From Mycoplasmoides pneumoniae FH (lineage in GTDB: Bacteria > Bacillota_I > Bacilli_A > Mycoplasmatales > Mycoplasmoidaceae), in assembly GCF_001272835.1 (NCBI RefSeq), contig NZ_CP010546.1, positions 302,809 to 334,808 of the forward strand: 32,000 bases of DNA, read 5' to 3'. Numbering within the stretch: the stretch's first letter is position 1; every line of letters starts with the position of its first letter. The position numbers and the translations under genes were made by a program. Below, piece by piece: positions 7,818 through 32,000 of this stretch. The notes beneath the pieces are model-generated. The model was given only the letters and a program-made list of their open reading frames with translations, searched no databases and was not told the DNA's origin.

Positions 7818-9953
7818 ATGAGTAAAAATCTGGTGGTGATTGAATCACCCAATAAAGTTAAAACGTTGCAAAAATATTTACCGAATGACTTTGAAATAGT
7901 TTCTACCATTGGTCATATTCGGGAAATGGTGCACAAAAACTTTGGTTTTAACGAAGCCGATTACTCACCAGTTTGGGAAGACTGAACTAAATCAAAAAAG
8001 AAGTTTTCTAGCCTTAGCTTTAAAGGTAATCTTAAGGGCAAAAAACTTTTAAGTAAGTACGACATCATCAAAAGCATTAAAGAGAAGGCTAGTAAAGCCA
8101 CTAACATTTACCTAGCAACCGACCCAGACCGTGAGGGAGAGGCAATTTCCTGACATGTTTACGATGTTTTGGATGAAAAGGACAAGTCGAAGTGCCAACG
8201 CATTACCTTTAACGAAATTACCAAGAACGCCGTTTTAGATGCACTGAAAAACCCACGGGAAATTGATCAGAGTTGGGTGCAGAGTCAGTTTGCGCGCCAA
8301 ATTCTTGACCGGATGATTGGTTTTCGCCTTTCAAGGCTGTTAAACAATTACCTCTCAGCTAAGTCAGCGGGACGGGTACAATCAGTAGCACTGCGTTTTT
8401 TAGAAGAACGTGAACAGGAAATTCGTAGCTTTGTACCACGGTTTTGGTGAACGCTCGATGTGTTGTTAAATCCCAAGGCTGAAGGTGTTAGGGAGGCGTG
8501 TGCTAATCGTTCAATTCCAATTGTCTTGCGTGAAATTAATCCTGCTTTACGTGCTGGCTTGAAATTTGAAGAGGAGAAGAGCGTATCGGGAATTGACTTT
8601 TTAGATGAAGCATCAGCTAAAAAGTTTGGTGAACAGCTCAAGGGTGTCTTTGAGGTGTACAACATTGATGAAACCAAACACTACAGCAGTTCGCCCAATT
8701 CCGCTTACACCACCGCTTCATTGCAAAAGGATGCCATCAACAAACTAGGTTGGTCTTCCAAAAAGGTAACCTTAATTGCCCAACACCTGTATGAAGGGGT
8801 GAGTATTAATGGAGAACAAACCGCTTTAATTAGCTATCCCCGTACCGACTCAACTCGTTTATCAGCGCAATTTCAACAAAGTTGTAAAGAATACATCTTA
8901 AACCATTACGGAGAAAAGTACCTCTCTAATCGGATTGTAAGCGCTAAGGGAAAAAAAGGTGAAAAAATTATCCAAGACGCCCATGAAGCAATTCACCCAA
9001 CTGACATGAACATTACCCCGGAAATGGTCAAGAATGCGATTAAGAAGGATGAGTTCTTACTGTACCGCTTAATCTGGATCCGTACGGTCGCTAGTTTAAT
9101 GGCGGATTGTAAAAAATCACATACCCACATCCGGTTTATTAACGATGGTAATAAGTTTTACGCTTCTTCCAAGTCATTAGTATTTGATGGTTATCGCAAA
9201 ATTTACGAACACTTTGAAAATAAGGAAAGTAATGATCTCTACATTGATTTGGATAAGATTAGGGTTGGTGATCGTTTCATGGCTAAAGACATTAAGATCA
9301 CAGCCCGCCAAACCCATCCAGCAGCCCGTTATACCCAAGCTAGTTTAATTGAAGCGTTAGAAAAGTCCAATATTGGTCGACCTTCCACCTATAACACGAT
9401 GGCTAGTGTTAATTTAGACCGGGGTTATGCTAGTTTAAATAAACATGCTTTTCACGTAACACAACTAGGGGAGCAGGTTAATGAAGAATTGTCCAAACAC
9501 TTTGGTAAGATCATTAACAAAGAGTTCACTAAAAACATGGAGAAGTCTTTGGATGAAATTGCTGAAAATAAAAAGAACTACCAGGAGTTTCTCCGTGATT
9601 TTTGGTCAAACTTTAAGGAAGAGGTAAAGCTAGCGGAGGGTTCGATTCAAAGAGTGAAAAAGGAAAAGGAATTTGTTGGTCGTGATTGTCCAAGCTGTGC
9701 TAGTCCCTTGTTGTACCGCTATACTAAACGGGGTAATGAAAAGTTTGTTGGGTGCAGTAACTTTCCCAACTGTAAATACAACGAGTTTAGCCAAAATAAA
9801 CCGAATTTAACTTTGGAAAAGCTCGAAGAACTGTGTCCGGAGTGTAACAGCCAACTAGTGAAAAGACGCACTAAGTTTAATCCCAATAAAACCTTTGTTG
9901 GTTGTAGTAATTTCCCTAGGTGCCGCTACATAAAGAAGGATAATGCTAGCTAG
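7818..9953 (+). CDS. topA: DNA topoisomerase I
   Basis: Frame 3 from ATG 7818 (MSKNLVVIESPNKVKTLQKYL, Toprim) continues through TGA codons into ORFs 8169-8450 and 8460-9953. Contains DPDREGEAISWH, the active-site region ISYPRTDS, and two C-terminal C4 zinc ribbons (CPSC...CSNFPNC and CPEC...CSNFPRC). Confidence 0.96.
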
Positions 9954-11370
9954 TTTAACGAGCAGAAGTGCCACTTCCTTCTCAATAATTTGAGCGTTGG
10001 TAAGTGCCATTTTGATCTTAAGTATCCTCATTTGGCTTATTATCACCATTTTCTTTGCTTGAAATTTACACCTCAAAAACAACAAGAAACGAACAAAGTA
10101 CCACTTAGAGCCGGAACAAATTAAGCACAAGATCATCCAAAATAAGACTAAATTGGGCAAAATGTTGGACTTTTACCAACAGCAGATTAACACTACTGCA
10201 ACTGAGCTGAAGTGGTTGGATGGTCAGTTTCAGCAAATTGATGAAACCGATAAAAAGAAAGCGCATCAAATTACAATTAGACTAGCGCGGAACCAACTGT
10301 TACAACAGCTTAGTGTAAAGTTAGACCAAAAGCAGTTTAGTCAACGCGCTAATAATGAACTGCAAAAGTTAAAGTTGTCTAACTTAGAGAGCTTTACTGA
10401 CCAAAAGATTAAATGAGACCAGGAGGGGATGAAATCCGCTGTATCCCGCGTTACCATTAACGAGTGAACCTTTAACCATTTTGCTGGTAAAAACCGTGTT
10501 TACTGGGATTACTTTAAACAAGTTTGTGATGTGGATTGCTCGATTAAACCACTTAAAGATCAGTTAGAGATTACTTTTTCGAGCTGAAGCTTATTGAAAA
10601 GACTGCAAGCAAAAAACCTGTTTAATAAGTTAATTGCTCAAAGTAGCAGTGTCAAGATGAGCGAAAAACTGATTAACAATGCTTTGCAATTAGTTCAGGA
10701 CAATTTGGCATTACAAGCGAGTGAAAGTGGCAATAAGCTGCTCAAGGAGTTTGAATTATCGTGCACTAACACACAGCTAGTCCAACTGTTGGGCTTTCAG
10801 CAGTTTTACTTCGGTACAAACCTGCTTAGCTTACTTGATTTGAGCCGTTCAATCGCTGTTTTAGTGCGCTTTTTAAATGAGCACTGTAAGTGAGAATTAA
10901 ACGAACGCTTACTAGTGGAAACTGCTTTGTTTAACAACTTGCAATGGGTTAATAACAACGACTTCTTTTTAAAGTCACACAATGATTTAAAACAGCTGCA
11001 CCTCTCCGCTGAACAGTTGGCGATTATTGAACAGCAAAACCGTCCCTTTTACATTGATGCTTATGCTTTATTGATTGCTGGCGTAAAGCAAATGCTGATG
11101 GAGCACGATGCTGTGGAACCAAAACAAATTCACTTTCATAATGCCAAAAAGGTAATGGAAAGCTTCCAGCTGTTTGGCATTGACCAGTTAGCGTTAATAG
11201 AGTACAACAACTGTCTCTATGGCTTTGTCACCACTAAACTCTATGAGATTAAACAATTAGATGATTTAGCTTTATTTAAAGTTTTGTTTAAAAGCTTTTT
11301 GAACAAGCATTTGAAACAAAAATTTGCAACAATCAGTTTATTTGTAAATACCCAAACACTCATGATCTAA
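9943..11370 (+). CDS. Membrane-anchored RNase Y-like protein lacking the HD catalytic residues (pseudo-RNase Y paralog)
   Basis: ATG 9943 overlaps the topA end by 11 nt. Frame 1 is open through TGA codons at 9991, 10060, 10414, 10465, 10585 and 10891, linking ORFs 10153-10416, 10594-10893 and 10915-11370. It has an N-terminal TM helix and a coiled coil. KH-like and HD-like segments align with the rny copy in this window (see findings). Confidence 0.75.
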
Positions 11371-16748: not shown

Positions 16749-17036
16749 ATGCAATACACCGTTTTAATTCCACTGTTTATTTTTATAGGAGCCATGGTGT
16801 TGTTTGGTTTTAGCTTTCAGAAAAAGCAACCACAACGCCGCATCGTTCAAATTCTGTTCTTAGCTTACTGTGTGGATTTTTTAGCACTAATTATTGCAGT
16901 GATGATGCTCACATTCTTAAGTTATGATGACTTAATGCTGGGCGTTTTAATTCCAGTATTAATCCTTTCAATCATTATGTTCTTTGTGATGATTATTGCC
17001 CACTATCCACTAATGAAACGCTTGTTTGGACATTAG
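16749..17036 (+). CDS. Small hydrophobic membrane protein (3 predicted TM helices)
   Basis: 95-aa ORF starting 2 nt after the rny stop. Strongly hydrophobic. No recognisable motif. Confidence 0.6.
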   Translation: MQYTVLIPLFIFIGAMVLFGFSFQKKQPQRRIVQILFLAYCVDFLALIIAVMMLTFLSYDDLMLGVLIPVLILSIIMFFVMIIAHYPLMKRLFGH

Positions 17037-17119
17037 ACAAAACGTGTCTCATTCAAGTTGTGCACAAACTTAGGTGTTTTAAGTAGATAGTCGAAGCGTT
17101 AAAAAAGTATTTTGGGTCT

Positions 17120-17148
17120 TCTACTTTTTCCCTAAGTAGATGTTTTTT
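17120..17148 (+). terminator. Candidate intrinsic terminator after the rny/small-membrane-protein string
   Basis: 7-bp stem tctactt(17120-17126)/aagtaga(17134-17140), 7-nt loop, followed by tgtttttt. The stem is AT-rich and therefore weak. Confidence 0.3.
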
Positions 17149-17297
17149 ATTGATGTAAATAAAAGGCCAAATTTAACTCTTATGAGTTAAAAAGTTCATT
17201 TTTTAAATAACATTAAACCGGAAATTTCAATTAGTTTCCTCTTCTTCAAAAGGATTTTCCAAAAAAAGCAAAATAATGCAATTATTTTTTACTGTTA

Positions 17298-18052
17298 ATG
17301 CGTAAAAAGAAGTTTTTGTCAAGGTTTTCTTTTAGTTCTCTATTTTTATTATGTGGAACATTGTTAAGTGCTTGCACTGGTATCCAAGCTGATCTTAGAA
17401 ATCTTATTAAAGAAACCACTGGTAAAGACATTGATTTGTCTAAAGCAATTAAAACTAAAGAAGGCAAAAAGAACATAATAGCTTCTTTAAAAAATCTTAC
17501 GAAGTTAATCCGAAAGATACAACAAAATTGTTGTTAGACGCCTGAAAACAGAGTTTTGAAGAGGGTAAATTAGGTATTGCGGATTTTGATTTTGACCATG
17601 TAGCTTATCCTCAAACAAATGATCCTTTCACGATGGAGCGAAAGGTTGATCATTTTCAAATGACATACCAAAGTTTTAAGGATTTGTTAGTTGAGGCTAG
17701 GCTGAGCTATACCTTTAATTGATTTGGGGATTATTCTTCAGGTGATTTCACTGCTAAGAGAGGTGACAAGCATTATTTTTATCTTTTCCTTAAAATTAAA
17801 TCTGATCCAAAAAAACAATTTTCAGCAAAAAAATTTCTTACTGAAGGAGAAGCGTTTACTGATCAAGAAGGAAAACAAACTACAAGAAATTTAGAGTGAA
17901 TTGAGTTTAGCGCTTCGATTAGCTGATGAACAAAAGGCAAAGATGATGTTAGTCAAAAAAGTTTGAAGAAATTTTTAGAAAGCTTTGCTACTAACACAGG
18001 CTACTCATCAGATATTAATCTCTTTAGTTATTTGGAATATTTAATTAAGTAA
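17298..18052 (+). pseudogene. Lipoprotein gene interrupted by a -1 frameshift in an A6 tract (possible phase-variable or decayed gene)
   Basis: The signal peptide plus lipobox MRKKKFLSRFSFSSLFLLCGTLLSA|C is in frame 3, which stops at 17535-17537 after 79 aa. Frame 2 is open from 17459 to TAA 18050-18052, including 4 TGA=Trp codons, and continues the protein ([25 protein letters not shown]...). The frames meet at AAAAAA 17489-17494. Confidence 0.75.
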
Positions 18053-18117
18053 TTTGTTGTGATTTTTTAGTTTTACTTGGAAAAAATTTAGCCACCTGCT
18101 TTTCAACTTGAACAAAT

Positions 18118-18150
18118 GGTTTTTTATTTGTACCGCATGAATAAAAAACC
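18118..18150. terminator. Perfect 11-bp hairpin between the convergent lipoprotein and DUF16 genes (possible bidirectional terminator)
   Basis: ggttttttatt (18118-18128) and aataaaaaacc (18140-18150) are exact reverse complements with an 11-nt loop. A second hairpin ccagcaa/ttgctgg (18149-18180) is followed by a T-rich run. Confidence 0.35.
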
Positions 18151-18202
18151 AGCAACTAACTTTTACAGATTAATTGCTGGTATTCTTTATTTTGAATAAT
18201 AT

Positions 18203-18836
18203 CTACTTAGAATCTAGTTTATCTAGGCGAACATCCATTGAATCCAAGCGATTGCTCATCTTTTGCAACATTTGCAAGATTAACTGTAGAGTTTCTCCTT
18301 GAACTTTTTGCTCCGCTTGAAGTTCTTTAATTTGTTCCCCTTGAGTTTGAACAGTTTCGGTTAATTGTTTAATTTGCTCACCCTGAACCTTGATCTGTTC
18401 ACCCTACGTTTTTTGCAGTTCAAACACAACATCAACTTTACCTTCAACGCGCTTCAATCGGCTTTAGTGGCGAAGTCTTTGAGCTTTTCGTCAAGCTATT
18501 GGTGAATTACAAATTCATATGTTTTTGACACCTTTTTACTTCCTGAATTAGGATCATTAGGACCTTTTGGAAATCCTGGTTATTTAGGGTTCTCAGGTTA
18601 TTCTGGTTTTTCTAGAAATTTTGGCAACTTCGGAGACTTTGGAATATCCGGTGTATTCGGATTCTCAGGTTTATCCAGTTGATCTTCTATTATCGTAAAG
18701 TCTTTATCCTTAAAATAGTACTCTTAGGTAGCTTGTGCAAACCATTTCTTTGCTTGGTATAGACAATTTGAAAATTAACTCTTTCCTTTGTCCGGGAAAG
18801 GATATTAAATTCCTTTTAGGAAATAACTTTAGGCAT
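18203..18836 (-). pseudogene. DUF16 (UPF0134) family coiled-coil protein pseudogene
   Basis: On the minus strand, GGAGG lies 9 nt before ATG 18836. The C-terminal part reads [66 protein letters not shown] with stop at 18203-18205, which is the family-typical heptad region. Upstream there are at least 5 in-frame TAA/TAG codons (for example 18816-18818 and 18404-18406) and at least 2 frameshifts. Confidence 0.8.
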
Positions 18837-19049
18837 TAATAAATTCCTCCTTTCTGTTCAAGGTTTAGAAAACTAAAACGTGCAACTTTGTTGCCAGCAA
18901 GGATCAACATCATCGTTGATCTAATAAATATATTGAGTAAAGGCATAATTTCCCTTCACTAAATAAATTGAACGCCTTATTTTGAAATGACAACAAATTG
19001 ACAAATTTCTTTTTAATTAAAGAAAATTTTGGAAATTAAGAGCTAATGC

Positions 19050-19663
19050 TTAATTTAAAGTCGTTGAATTTAAGCCTTCTTTTTGTTTTTGAACTCAATC
19101 GAATAAATAGTTTTGGTAATAATCCAATTGCTTTTTACGCATTTCAATTTCTTTGGGAATACTTTCGGTAAGATCGTTACATTTTTTTCAAAAGCAAAGA
19201 GGATATCGGCAATCTTTTCTTGAATTTCTAGAGGTGGGAAAGTAAGTTCAATTTCTGCTAATTTACTTATTCCTAATTTAGGAATAGGGCAAGCATAATT
19301 AACAAACTTAGATGTTTGCAATCTGAGTGCATAAGCTAAAAATTTAGGATTAATTTCTTCGTTTTTTACTTTTAAAACGCCACAGTCTTGTCTTGCATTA
19401 AACTGTCCTTTTCTATAGAATACAGCACCAGCATAAGAACCTCCTGTAGTTCAAGTCACGTACTCGCCATCTCGGTCACAATCTTTAATTTTGCCAACTT
19501 CACCATCATTTAAGGTTGAAGCTGAATAAACCGGGTATTAACCGAGATTATCCTTAATATATTTTTTAGTAATTGCACGACCCCTCGAGATCTCGCAAAT
19601 ATCTTTGATTTTGTAAGTTTTGATTTGCACAACAGTAACAGTTTAATTTCTTTTAAAAGTCAT
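19050..19663 (-). pseudogene. hsdS: Type I restriction-modification specificity subunit (HsdS) relic: one target-recognition domain plus the C-terminal conserved helix
   Basis: The minus-strand translation reads YKIKDICEISRGRAITKKYIKDNLG*YPVYSASTLNDGEVGKI...GEYVTWTTGGSYAGAVFYRKGQFNARQDCGVLKV...FLAYALRLQTSKFV...PPLEIQEKIADIL. After a frameshift in A7 (plus-strand T7, 19182-19188) it continues as LTESIPKEIEMRKKQLDYYQNYLFDW. It carries two in-frame TAA codons. Homology may extend to about 19715. Confidence 0.8.
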
Positions 19664-19740
19664 TTTCAGCGACTGTTTTAGATTTTTCTTTGTCATCATT
19701 ATTGCGCTCTTTCTGCATATTAAGTGCTTGTTGGCAAATT

Positions 19741-19746
19741 AGAATA
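19741..19746 (+). promoter_or_regulatory. Candidate -10 box TAGAAT, 10 nt upstream of ATG 19757 (near-leaderless transcript)
   Basis: aaatTAGAATaatacccagttATG. This is the same hexamer as upstream of trxA and spx. Confidence 0.3.
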
Positions 19747-19756
19747 ATACCCAGTT

Positions 19757-20038
19757 ATGAACCGTCCTACTCCCAATTTTGAAGCAATCGATAAGAAGAT
19801 TAGTGCCTTTGTCACTAACCACGATAACTTATTGGATAAGTTACTCAAACAACAAACCGAATTGTTAACTAGTGAAATTACGACTAATTTTGAGGTAACC
19901 CAACAAATCCAGGAAGAAGTAGCCAAAAAGACGAAGCAACACTCTAAAAACTACAAGTGACTAGCCACTGTTGTTTTAGCGAACGGTGTTGTAAGTCTCT
20001 TTCTTTTAGGTGGGTTAATCTACCTCTTTAGTAAGTAG
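19757..20038 (+). CDS. Small tail-anchored hypothetical protein (coiled-coil N-terminus, C-terminal TM helix)
   Basis: ORF 19757-19960 is extended through TGA 19958 to TAG 20036-20038 (93 aa). The C-terminus [24 protein letters not shown] is hydrophobic. Overlaps the 3' end of the HIT gene convergently by 24 nt. Confidence 0.5.
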
Positions 20039-20449
20039 TTCCCAATTAGCTTCAATTGAGCGGTTGTTCGTCTTTTTAACGTTGTAACAAAAGCCTAAAC
20101 CAGTTTCGTATTTTGGTACTACATGCATGTGGTAGTGAAATACTTCCTGCCCTGCCTTAGCCCCTTCATTGACAACATAGTTTAATCCAGCTGGTTGGAG
20201 CCGTTGTTGTAGCTTTAAAGCCATTTCTTTGGCGAGTAAACTAACCGCCTTCAAACTCTCATCATCAGTCGAGGAATAGTTAACGGCGTGTTTTTTGGGA
20301 ATTACAAGCGTATGACCATCAGCAACTGGAAAGGCATCTAAAAAGGCAACAGCGTGTTCGTTTTCACCAACCTTAAAGGATTTCACATTCCCCTCTACAA
20401 TTCCACAGAAGATACAGTTATTGTTTGCCATACTTTGTTTTTGCACCAT
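20015..20449 (-). CDS. HIT (histidine triad) family nucleotide hydrolase/transferase
   Basis: 144-aa ORF. CIFCGI zinc-binding-like N-terminus, [11 protein letters not shown], and the histidine triad HYHMHVVP. Confidence 0.92.
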
Positions 20450-28838: not shown

Positions 28839-31198
28839 ATGAAATTTAAGTATGGAACGGTTGTTTTGGGCAGTTTTTTAGGGCTTTCTGTGGTGTTAGC
28901 TGCCTGTGGTGCTCGTGGTAAATTTGACCAATTTGATGATGGCAAAATTAAGCTAGCATCATCCTTAACTTCCAAAGCAGCTGCCAATGCTTTACAAACA
29001 ATAATAGAGAAGTACAACATTGTCAAAAGCGGCAAGGATTACCCCATTGAAATTACCCAAATTGCTGGTGGTTATGACGGCGGGCGGACTGATCTCCAAA
29101 CCCGAGTTAGTGTTAAGGATAAAACGAACTTTTATAACCTTATTTTGAACTATCCAGATTTAGTTTCTGTGTTAGCGCGCAGTGGAATGGAACTGCTTTT
29201 TGACAAAGTTAATGTTGATAAATTAGAGCCGAACTTCTTAAAGTTTAATGAACAGATTAGTGGAGTCGCTAAAAGTGGTAACTATGGTATTCCCGTGTCC
29301 CTTTCAACTGACATTTTGGTCTTAAATGGTCCGGTGTTGCACTATATTTTGAACAGTGCGAAGAAAGAAGAGGCTAATTCTCAAGTTAAAAGTCAAATAA
29401 AAACATCACAAATTCAAGCTAAAGGTTCATTAACAATTGATACAGATGAAAATACCAAATCACTTTGAGAGAAAATTCAAAATTCAGCCAAAGCTAATGG
29501 TGAAACTAATCAAAAAGGACGAAAAGCTGCAAAATCAAATAAAACTGCATTAGTTCAACTTAAAAATGGCGCTGATACTACCACTAACGAAGAGAATAAA
29601 GATACCAAAACTAGTGATGATAAAGTTAAACAAACTTGAGGTGATTATGTAGAAAAGGATGATGGTCTTAAAAACTATACCTTTAGGGCTAGCGTGTTTG
29701 AAAACTGGCATGATTTCCTCGATTTTTCGACAAGGGTAGCTAAATCTTTTACTGAAAAGGTAAGCAACATTACCAATAAAAAGGGCACTGATATTCAGGG
29801 AGTGCTTGGTGTCGACAGTTCTCCTAATGTTTTATTTGCCTCTGTATTTGCTGCAGGTGGTGGTAATTATGAAAACTTCTTTTATAAGGTGAAAGATGGT
29901 CGGGCTGATTTTAGTAACTTTAAGAACAAGGGTAGTTCTTACCAAAACCTCCAAAGCGTTTTTAAAGACTAAAGTGAACTAATTAAAAGTAACGGTCTTT
30001 TTGTCAATAAAGGTGGTTCTTATTCTTCCAATTTCCAGAAGTTTCACCAATTAGCTTACAGTATTTCTTCCACTTCTGGCTTTAAGTATTCGTTTGCCGA
30101 TAAGAACGCTAAGCGCTTGAAGTTTAGTGACGACAACACCTTCGTTGAATATCCTGATTTTACTCAGGAAATTAAGTCGCCAGACCAACAAAATGGTCAA
30201 AATACTGATGACAATAACAGTAAAAAAGAAGAAAACCTTTTAGGTACCTTTGAAGTTAAAGATTACTCGAAATCTAATAAAGGCGGGAAAGGAAAAAGTA
30301 AGGGTAAAGGCGGAAGCAGCAGTAATATGAAGACTATTTACATTTACAAAGGCTATATTCCTGAAGATAAAAAGAAAGGTGATAATGCCATTTTAGTTAC
30401 TGAGAAAAAAATTATTGATGCTTTAGAAAAAGCTGCTAATTCTAATGGTGAAAGTACACAATCTAATCCAAAAACCATAGCACTTCAAGCAGCTAAAAAA
30501 GAAACTAAAAAGAGCAATAAGAAAGAATCAAAAACGATTGGATATACAACTACTGGTTATGTCAATGCTGATGGTAAACATATTTTTGATACAGACAGAA
30601 TTAACAATGAGAGGTTTGATCGTAAAATTATTATTGGTGCTACTCTAGAAACTTTAGACCAATCTAGTACACTCCAAAGTGGTGAAGCAATTGTCTTACC
30701 AGCACCTGGTAAATATAAGAGTAGTGATCAAAAAACGGTTATGACAGCGCAAGGCCCCAAGATAATCGGGATCCATGCTAATGCTAAAGAGAACGAAGAA
30801 ACACAAAAATTTGTTAATTGGTTTTAAATACGCCAGAAACTTGAGAAAGTAAGAGGAATAAGAAAAACTCTAATGAAAAACAAACTGCAGCACAATACTT
30901 TGCTCAAGAGGCATCTTACATCTTGCCCTTAAAAGAAAACTTTGAAAAGGTTCAAATTAACGATAAAGGTGAGAAAAATGAAAATGACACAAAGGGCAAT
31001 ACTTATACCGCTAAAGCTTTAGAACTCTTTAAAAAAGTTTCTCAAAATGAAATCGTGAGTTACAGTGACCCAAGTGACTTTAGAAGTGGTAAGTTTCGTG
31101 ATGCGATTGGCTCTAACTTTAACGCCATTATTAATTCCAAAGGAGACTTCAATAAATTTATTAGTAGTTTTACCGCAAGTTTAGGCTCAGACTTTTAG
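28839..31198 (+). pseudogene. Large (~786-aa) surface lipoprotein gene, disrupted by an in-frame TAA and a frameshift in a T4 run
   Basis: The signal peptide plus lipobox is [22 protein letters not shown]|C. Frame 3 is continuous from 28839 to 30827 (TGA=Trp at 29466 and 29637) except for TAA 29970-29972. Frame 3 then stops at 30825-30827, while frame 2 continues from 30824 (LNTPETWESKRNKK...[13 protein letters not shown]...) to TAG 31196-31198. Track pieces are 28839-29468, 29694-29972, 30117-30827 and 30923-31198. Confidence 0.75.
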
Positions 31199-31742: not shown

Positions 31743-32000
31743 TTACTTTTTGGGCAATTTAGATCATGAATACCGAAAAAGTATAAGATTCATTAAGTTA
31801 ACGAGGTATCACCTCTTTTTAAAACAAGCCCAATCGCAACTCGTTTCTTTGTTTAACCAAAACTTTTTGCAAGTTTTGTTGGCATTTCTAAATAAATCTT
31901 TCAATTTATTTAGTGATGACACAAAAATTAATATGTTGAACTTTTTAAATAAATCAACAATGGTATTGATCCCCGTTGGCAGCAGTGCTCCAAGTTCTAG
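31743..32000 (-). CDS. Unassigned partial ORF running off the window (3' end at TAA 31743-31745)
   Basis: 85 consecutive sense codons under code 4 (3 TGA=Trp) in about 30% GC sequence: ...LELGALLPTGINTIVDLFKKFNILIFVSS...RWYLVNLMNLILFRYSWSKLPKK*. It is absent from the track because it has no start codon inside the window and is split at TGA. No motif recognised. Confidence 0.3.

Follow-up and report, generated by a model that had tools for sequence, protein, structure and literature searches.

Introduction

The hsd/vsa system of Mycoplasma pulmonis depends on hsdS genes arranged as inverted pairs, on specific recombination sites and on a site-specific recombinase. Its invertible loci physically associate hsdS with surface lipoprotein genes (PMC4537597). 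A similar association is found in the locus described here, a 2,720-nt segment between MPN270 and MPN272, at positions 17037-19756 of a 32,000-nt stretch of the Mycoplasma pneumoniae FH genome (NZ_CP010546.1, positions 302,809 to 334,808; this whole stretch is called the window). The segment, or island, contains three genes: the lipoprotein gene MPN271, a DUF16 pseudogene and a relic of hsdS, a gene of Type I restriction-modification (R-M) systems. Unlike the M. pulmonis loci, it has no paired inverted hsdS genes, no recombination sites and no recombinase.

Two further systems are found within the families of M. pneumoniae and its relatives. The first is the RepMP1/DUF16 network (Musatovova et al. 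2012, PMC3472980): the island's DUF16 relic is a member of the family, has the family's short intergenic repeat upstream and shows domain-level exchange with another member, but it lacks the RepMP1 core, is a pseudogene and stands outside the published 26-gene list, and the strain-to-strain rearrangement of the network is not seen at this locus. The second comprises RepMP2/3, RepMP4, RepMP5 and MgPar, which, like the island's relics, are non-expressed partial paralogues able to exchange sequence with expressed genes (PMC3472980). In those elements variation among strains and during infection is documented, whereas the island shows one old tract of exchange and is as invariant as its flanks.

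We find that the locus is an ordinary outcome of gene duplication and decay and not a new system. Specifically, we consider it probable (roughly 0.78) that the segment is an M. pneumoniae-specific patch of intragenomic duplicates, derived from three dispersed multigene families, that is now decaying. The main value of this result lies in the annotation and bookkeeping of a model minimal genome; it reveals no new mechanism.

Extent and composition of the segment

An earlier sequence-only reading of the window had proposed an accessory segment between conserved neighbours, spanning 17037-20014, and had suggested comparing the interval from rny to the HIT gene with Mycoplasma genitalium. When this comparison was run, the segment proved to be absent from the syntenic M. 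genitalium locus (L070, CP159789.1) and its neighbours to be conserved: the orthologues of MPN270 and MPN272 lie 14 nt apart there, against 2,720 nt here, and queries with the lipoprotein, DUF16 and hsdS sequences found no match anywhere in that syntenic locus. DNA homology between the species runs to window position 17035 and picks up again at 20050, so that the proposed left boundary (17036/17037) is exact. The right boundary was wrong. The 93-aa open reading frame (ORF) at 19757-20038 is an exact match to 'MPN272 family protein', and its M. genitalium orthologue has equal length (93 aa), an equivalent position and 37% amino-acid identity (E=1e-17). Because MPN272 is orthologous and syntenic in M. 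genitalium, it is a conserved neighbour and not island cargo, and the island ends at 19756. Thus, of the four genes originally assigned to the island, the frameshifted lipoprotein gene (+), the DUF16 pseudogene (-) and the hsdS relic (-) stand, and the small tail-anchored ORF does not belong to it.

The features of the segment and its immediate neighbours are as follows. Reading frames were taken from translations with genetic code 4 (TGA = Trp); ORFs called with table 11 fragment the genes.

16749-17036, + strand: MPN270, left conserved neighbour, outside the island (NCBIfam NF045746 'MPN270 family', E=1.7e-54, full length)
17037-17297, + strand: non-coding leader 5′ of MPN271 (no ORF, no Rfam match)
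17298-18052, + strand: MPN271, Family-5 lipoprotein gene, frameshifted in this strain (Pfam Lipoprotein_3)
17489-17494, + strand: poly-A tract 1, A6 here (alignment to L002, L004 and L074)
17809-17815, + strand: poly-A tract 2, A7 here (A6 in the 198-aa allele)
18148-18181, - strand: hairpin and T-run, likely terminator (13-bp stem, terminator scan)
18203-18836, - strand: DUF16 pseudogene, RepMP1-core-negative, MPN013/MPN344-like (Pfam DUF16)
18682-18971, - strand: tract near-identical to the MPN013 5′ region (95.2% over 292 nt)
18837-19049, - strand: spacer between hsdS and DUF16, with a repeat found 5′ of DUF16-family genes
19050-19630, - strand: hsdS relic, a single target recognition domain and the C-terminal conserved helix (Pfam Methylase_S)
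19757-20038, + strand: MPN272, 93 aa, C-terminal membrane helix, right conserved neighbour
20015-20449, - strand: HIT-family gene, conserved neighbour (Pfam HIT/DcpS_C in public gene calls; syntenic in M. genitalium)

The composition of the segment sets it apart from its surroundings. As had been claimed, its GC content is low, at 0.319 against 0.392 in the left flank and 0.408 in the right, and none of the 239 other windows of its size in the 32 kb is as low (minimum 0.327, mean 0.396). Runs of at least seven A or T are about four times denser in the island than in the remaining window. The low GC, the long non-coding gaps and an excess of homopolymer indels would be explained by relaxed selection. 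Scans of the island for Rfam families, tRNAs, repeats and promoters returned nothing besides one terminator-like hairpin.

Origin of the three copies

The earlier suggestion that the island's genes are paralogues of families found elsewhere in the genome is borne out for all three. The hsdS relic matches Pfam Methylase_S (PF01420) with E=7.4e-26 (91.8 bits, cut-off 22). Its amino-acid identity to HsdS of the MPN343 type is 63-71%, with 71% to the first target recognition domain (TRD) of MPN343 and 61% to the second, and its C-terminal helix is of the CR2 type. The DUF16 copy matches Pfam DUF16 (PF01519) with E=1.4e-14 (54.9 bits, cut-off 40); it carries the invariant motifs of the family, including QGEQIKEL, and its C-terminal heptad-repeat coiled coil matches the profile. 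Its layout of N-terminal domain, proline-rich linker and coiled coil is that of MPN344 and MPN013, to both of which it shows 53-55% amino-acid similarity over its full length. The closest intact DUF16 paralogue (P0001) is MPN_344, which lies directly downstream of hsdS MPN343, on the same strand, in the main Type I R-M locus.

This arrangement points to the source of the pair. Island positions 18242-19623 align contiguously with 9207-10570 of the M. pneumoniae record L005, through the 3′ half of hsdS, the spacer and DUF16 (69% over 1,438 nt), and the 5′ end of hsdS with its upstream region is 75% identical to the MPN343 region. Because the alignment of hsdS, spacer and DUF16 with MPN343-MPN344 is contiguous, the two genes were duplicated together, as one piece; the unit was copied whole from an MPN343-MPN344-like source. 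The two loci agree in order and strand (hsdS, spacer, DUF16), in the hsdS N-terminus, in the C-terminal helix and in the architecture of DUF16. They differ in that hsdM (MPN342) and a degenerate hsdR (MPN345-347) accompany MPN343-MPN344, whereas the island copy has no adjacent hsdM or hsdR. In addition, the island's hsdS has a single TRD where MPN343 has two, the AELS tandem repeat of MPN343 is missing from it, and both island genes are interrupted. The TRD of the relic is closer to TRD1 of MPN343, yet it is followed by the C-terminal helix, as would be expected if an in-register deletion had taken place between the two TRDs; hsdS probably collapsed to a single TRD in this way. The MPN343-type hsdS of L005 (8537-9778), a type 1 genome, has 12 tandem copies of AELS in its central helix; the island relic has none. 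A variable repeat of the AELS type has been described by Xiao et al. 2015.

The DUF16 relic also has a second close relative. Over 662 nt, comprising its 5′ half and the sequence upstream, it is 78% identical to MPN013. Against MPN094, a gene with the RepMP1 core, the 5′ part of the relic reaches no more than 39-45% identity, a level that indicates no homology. The relic thus lacks the RepMP1 core; MPN013 is itself classed as RepMP1-core-negative in the published DUF16 list (PMC3472980). The spacer at 18837-19049 is homologous to the upstream regions of MPN094, MPN010 and MPN013 and to window positions 31844-32000. The terminator-like hairpin sits between the convergent MPN271 and DUF16 genes, inside a segment of 208 nt that includes the 3′ end of the relic and matches the 3′ end and flank of MPN094 at 86.5%. 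A DNA pattern for QGEQIKEL gave 59 chance matches in unrelated metagenome-assembled genomes of a species-representative genome collection and none in M. pneumoniae, which may be absent or masked in that collection or missed by the pattern. A pattern built from the DUF16 alignment gave 111 matches there, none of which could be confirmed. Loci L006-L064 were accordingly set aside, and the paralogues were taken from L005, L066, L067, L069, L072 and L075.

MPN271 encodes a signal peptide and a lipobox (LLSAC):

MRKKKFLSRFSFSSLFLLCGTLLSAC

It matches Pfam Lipoprotein_3 (PF00938) with 32.7 bits (cut-off 22.7), and with its lipobox cysteine, signal peptide and profile match it has the defining features of Lipoprotein Multigene Family 5. 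This family consists of MPN011, 012, 271, 411 and 505 and is described as unique to M. pneumoniae (PMC2515320). The amino-acid identity of MPN271 is 50% to MPN012 and 44% to MPN011, which are adjacent Family-5 paralogues (in record L067). At the nucleotide level, the gene and its leader are 73-79% identical to the MPN012 region; the leader itself (17094-17156) is paralogous to the region upstream of MPN012 (L067 12177-12110; blastn, 79% over 68 nt). The lipoprotein gene and its leader are therefore related to MPN012. The MPN010-MPN013 locus resembles the island in that Family-5 lipoprotein genes adjoin DUF16 and in that MPN010 and MPN011 are convergent, as are MPN271 and the DUF16 relic. It differs in having no hsdS and intact genes, and in that MPN012 and MPN013 are divergent, whereas the lipoprotein and DUF16 genes of the island are convergent.

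Neither relic is listed among the 10 published hsdS genes (PMC4537597) or the 26 published RepMP1/DUF16 genes (PMC3472980). Both are uncatalogued members of known multigene families, and the island adds an 11th hsdS copy and one further DUF16 copy to these catalogues, both of them pseudogenes. In some genomes the hsdS fragment is nonetheless annotated by NCBI, under the name 'restriction endonuclease subunit S'.

MPN271 and its alleles

In the window, the reading frame of MPN271 is broken at the A6 run at 17489-17494 (tract 1), which leaves a 79-aa N-terminal ORF with the remainder out of frame; with one A added back at tract 1, the translation becomes identical to the 251-aa 'Uncharacterized lipoprotein MPN_271' known from strain M129. 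The 79-aa ORF carries B434_ locus tags of strain 19294, which groups with type-2 strains (Xiao et al. 2015). Public records include sequences identical to this one: a 12.3-kb stretch around the 16749-17036 ORF is identical to CP178938.1, and the island is identical to CP010539.1.

We compared three haplotypes: that of the window, which is type 2, and those of L002 and L074, which are both type 1. The tracts vary in length between isolates, A6 or A7 at tract 1 and A7 or A6 at tract 2, and each change shifts the frame. The window haplotype has A6 at tract 1 and A7 at tract 2 (79 aa), L002 has A7 and A6 (198 aa), and L074 has A7 at both and encodes the intact 251 aa. Among public contigs, the 251-aa form occurs on 62, including the original M129 entry (AAB96211.1), the 79-aa product on 130 and the 198-aa product on 351, with 23 more carrying a 177-aa call of the same allele. 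The frameshift reported by the sequence-only reading is therefore real in this strain but not general. These alleles are not sequencing errors, since many independent assemblies carry them and they segregate together with single-nucleotide polymorphisms (SNPs). The 251-aa and 198-aa alleles have all SNPs in common and differ at tract 2 alone; it follows that MPN271 was inactivated twice independently, each time by the loss of one A. These knock-outs lie at tract 1 in the type-2 haplotype of the window and at tract 2 in most type-1 genomes, and MPN271 would have stayed intact longest of the three genes, as it still is in M129-like strains. A 213-aa lipoprotein call (L004 7132-7891) was rejected as an artefact, because the end of that contig turns back on itself and repeats the MPN271 region in inverted orientation.

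This pattern raises the possibility that MPN271 is a phase-variable contingency gene, in which reversible slippage at the two A7 tracts switches a surface lipoprotein for immune evasion and the truncation is its OFF state. Several observations are in keeping with this: the three allelic states differ only by the gain or loss of one A at two coding A-tracts, most sequenced clinical genomes have an OFF form (about 504 contigs, compared with 62 for the intact one), the island's excess of long A/T runs is marked, and the product is a surface lipoprotein whose gene was detected by quantitative PCR and hence is transcribed (PMC2515320). However, A7 is short for a contingency tract, and the neighbouring relics also have homopolymer indels, as expected from plain relaxed constraint. 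Moreover, each allele follows one SNP haplotype, and among the few loci inspected the intact allele is never on a type-2 haplotype and reversion was not seen; this fits two fixed clonal losses. We consider adaptive switching unlikely.

Whatever their cause, the two slips have practical consequences. MPN271 is annotated as intact in M129 yet is truncated in roughly nine-tenths of sequenced genomes, by two lineage-marking homopolymer slips. This could matter to lipoprotein and antigen studies that take M129 as a proxy for clinical strains, and the slips could serve as simple lineage markers.

Strain divergence and sequence exchange

Between the lineages, SNPs are equally dense inside and outside the island (2 per 2,720 nt and 7 per 9,568 nt, respectively). 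Indels number three in the island against one outside, and each of those in the island alters the length of a homopolymer.

A sliding comparison of five DUF16 loci revealed a part of the DUF16 relic that does not follow the divergence of the rest. At about 18974-18735, which covers about 135 nt of upstream sequence and the first 34 codons, the relic is about 98% identical to MPN013; over a wider span of 292 nt the likeness is 95.2%, the core being some 240 nt long. No other pair of paralogues exceeds 72% identity in this region, and the remaining relic is 45-83% identical. Within the tract, the stop at codon 7 of the relic (TAA) corresponds to CAA in MPN013, one C>T transition apart; a deletion of 1 nt marks the end of the tract. 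We interpret this as a gene-conversion tract of 240-290 nt, by which the 5′ end of the DUF16 copy exchanged sequence with MPN013 at some earlier time. That recombination should have reached the locus is in keeping with what is known of these families (PMC3472980). The event must be old, since both lineages have the tract in identical form and it has come to differ from MPN013 by about 2%. Comparing the island with about 132 kb (16%) of the genome outside it, and in a few strains, we saw no sign of ongoing exchange, the SNP divergence of the island between lineages being equal to that of its flanks.

These data bear on the proposal that the island is a reservoir for recombination, which in its strongest form would make it an active archive of silent donor cassettes that feed the expressed DUF16 and hsdS genes by gene conversion, as RepMP and MgPar do for P1 and MgpB. 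In its favour are the MPN013-like tract of 240-290 nt (95-98% identity, the surroundings being at about 70%), 84 nt at 93% identity and an identical 33-mer in common with MPN615, and the known recombination of RepMP1/DUF16 genes through short repeats (PMC3472980). However, the tract is old, and the relic may have been the recipient. One apparent recombinant was found: P0044, an uninterrupted 193-aa HsdS on a 1.5-kb contig (L068, Logan ERR973245), in which rplM, rpsI and MPN615 are followed by a switch to the relic at the identical 33-mer, with the contig ending just beyond. On the strength of a three-way alignment we treat it as a chimera of short-read assembly, and it is the only apparent recombinant hsdS. 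What stands of the reservoir idea is thus one old tract shared with MPN013; current exchange was not seen, and we judge an active archive to be improbable.

A combination of the two preceding readings is less probable again: a two-layer variation device, in which MPN271 would be switched at its two poly-A tracts while the dead hsdS-DUF16 pair is maintained as a donor of sequence: from time to time it would rewrite the 5′ end of an expressed DUF16 gene (MPN013, for example) or a TRD of an hsdS gene (MPN615 or MPN343, for example). If true, it would extend the donor-cassette principle of RepMP and MgPar to the methylation-specificity and DUF16 families, but we think this very doubtful.

Lesions of the hsdS and DUF16 copies

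As the sequence-only reading had proposed, the minus strand carries an HsdS half-gene relic and a DUF16 coiled-coil pseudogene. The hsdS relic has an in-frame TAA at 19540-19538 (codon 31) and a -1 frameshift at the A/T7 tract at 19182-19188. It does not have two TRDs in one uninterrupted ORF, as it retains one TRD and one C-terminal helix. From these features, the hsdS copy is predicted to be a pseudogene, a half-gene relic and not a functional member of its family. The DUF16 relic has no intact reading frame: TAA or TAG stops stand in frame at five positions (18818, 18600, 18582, 18498 and 18406), and there are two net frameshifts, one near 18735-18722 and the other near 18450. Most of its lesions are stop codons made by base substitution and not homopolymer errors.

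In the strain comparison that had been proposed, the lesions of DUF16 and hsdS were present in all haplotypes examined, while MPN271 is intact in some strains. Because every DUF16 and hsdS lesion is common to all haplotypes, these lesions are older than the split of the lineages; both copies would have lost their function before type 1 and type 2 diverged and would now be inert pseudogenes. A further difference between the lineages lies at position 19131, which has T5 in the window and T6 in L002 and L074. In type 1 the T6, which lies 52 nt 3′ of the hsdS frameshift, brings the C-terminal helix back into frame, with a 17-aa out-of-frame patch remaining, and the frame-restored sequence gives rise to the 136-154-aa ORFs annotated by NCBI.

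Could the hsdS fragment still be functional? A half-size HsdS made from an internal start could dimerise and, with HsdM, give an additional methylation specificity; half-size or truncated HsdS can be active in other bacteria (PMC4537597), and the compensating indel of type 1 restores the helix frame within an annotated ORF. However, the stop at codon 31 costs the protein its conserved N-terminus, the first part of the helix is given over to the 17-aa out-of-frame patch, no part of the helix is in frame in the lineage of the window and there is no adjacent hsdM. Such a function is highly improbable.

The idea that the island is a horizontally acquired mobile element, or that its lesions are sequencing or assembly errors, draws on its low GC relative to the flanks and on the error-prone homopolymers in which lesions lie, but it is effectively refuted: the closest relatives of all three genes are in the same genome, the window contains no tRNA gene and, among its ORFs, no integrase, transposase or recombinase, a repeat scan found flanking repeats of the segment that are short and at chance level only, and each allele, carried by between 62 and 351 independent contigs, segregates together with SNPs, the DUF16 lesions being mostly substitution stops.

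Co-location of the three families

The sequence-only reading had described lipoprotein, DUF16 and hsdS combinations as a module that recurs at several loci in genomes of the M. pneumoniae type. With published M129 coordinates, a listed DUF16/RepMP1 gene lies no more than 5 kb from six of the nine hsdS loci (P=0.017 under random placement). Counting MPN344 as well raises this to seven of nine (P=0.004); merging MPN285 and MPN289/290 as one locus gives a conservative six of eight (P=0.01). All five Family-5 lipoprotein genes adjoin a DUF16 gene (MPN010/013, the relic described here, MPN410 and MPN504). Strings that combine lipoprotein, hsdS and DUF16 genes are found at MPN284-290 and MPN363-365. 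The arrangements at the loci inspected directly are as follows.

MPN342-347: hsdM, hsdS, DUF16 and hsdR fragments, in that order
MPN089-094: hsdS 3.7 kb upstream of DUF16, on the same strand
MPN284-290: lipoprotein, hsdS, further genes, then DUF16, lipoprotein and hsdS
MPN363-365: lipoprotein gene, followed immediately by hsdS
MPN010-013: DUF16, two Family-5 lipoprotein genes and DUF16; no hsdS
MPN615: hsdS alone

The lipoprotein family (Lipoprotein_X/10 or Lipoprotein_3), the gene order and the orientation differ between these loci. The three families are therefore significantly co-located, in a loose association that arises from segmental duplication and is not a fixed cassette; the co-occurrence is real, and the fixed module is not.

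Discussion

The reading that we prefer is that three genes of dispersed families were brought together by duplication within the M. pneumoniae genome and have since been decaying. Four points weigh against this reading or limit its reach. First, two independent knock-outs of MPN271, both at homopolymer tracts, would also fit adaptive on/off switching. Second, the restoration of the hsdS helix frame in type 1 is a little unexpected for a fully neutral relic; it could be due to chance or to residual selection. Third, the comparison of sequence exchange covers 16% of the genome, and other donors or recipients may exist beyond it. Fourth, presence and absence of the segment were compared in two species, M. 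pneumoniae and M. genitalium, and such a comparison would fit a gain in the former as well as a loss in the latter; a search with Rny matched these two species only.

Neighbouring genes and further observations

The conserved neighbours show some features of their own. In M. genitalium, sequence orthologous to MPN270 lies directly 3′ of rny (56% amino-acid identity). This orthologue (L070 9458-9743) matches in two frames, as residues 1-90 and 69-95; it is uncalled there and possibly frameshifted. At the other end, MPN272 and the HIT gene are convergent and overlap at their 3′ ends by 24 nt (20015-20038; L070 10016-10039), an overlap kept in both species despite the 37% identity of MPN272. A mention of 'MPN272' in PMC7156367 was discarded as a source on this gene, since the text there refers to DnaK and the label is evidently a mistake.

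Some complete M. pneumoniae records, including those that we used for the paralogues (L005, CP179123.1; L067, CP179011.1; and also L072, CP179000.1), are about 857.8 kb long, about 41 kb above the usual length of about 816 kb, which may reflect a large duplication, an insertion or an artefact of assembly.

To the right of the island, a large lipoprotein gene had been described as disrupted, and it is indeed in three pieces at 28839-31198. This Lipoprotein_X/Lipoprotein_10 gene, which is probably MPN281, is divided among ORFs at 28839-29972, 30117-30827 and 30818-31198; MPN281 has been listed as 'Pseudo' (PMC4814563). At the right edge of the window, positions 31844-32000 contain the repeat that is found 5′ of DUF16 genes, about 70% identical to island positions 18873-19025, and a second cluster of lipoprotein, DUF16 and hsdS genes (MPN281-290) seems to begin there.

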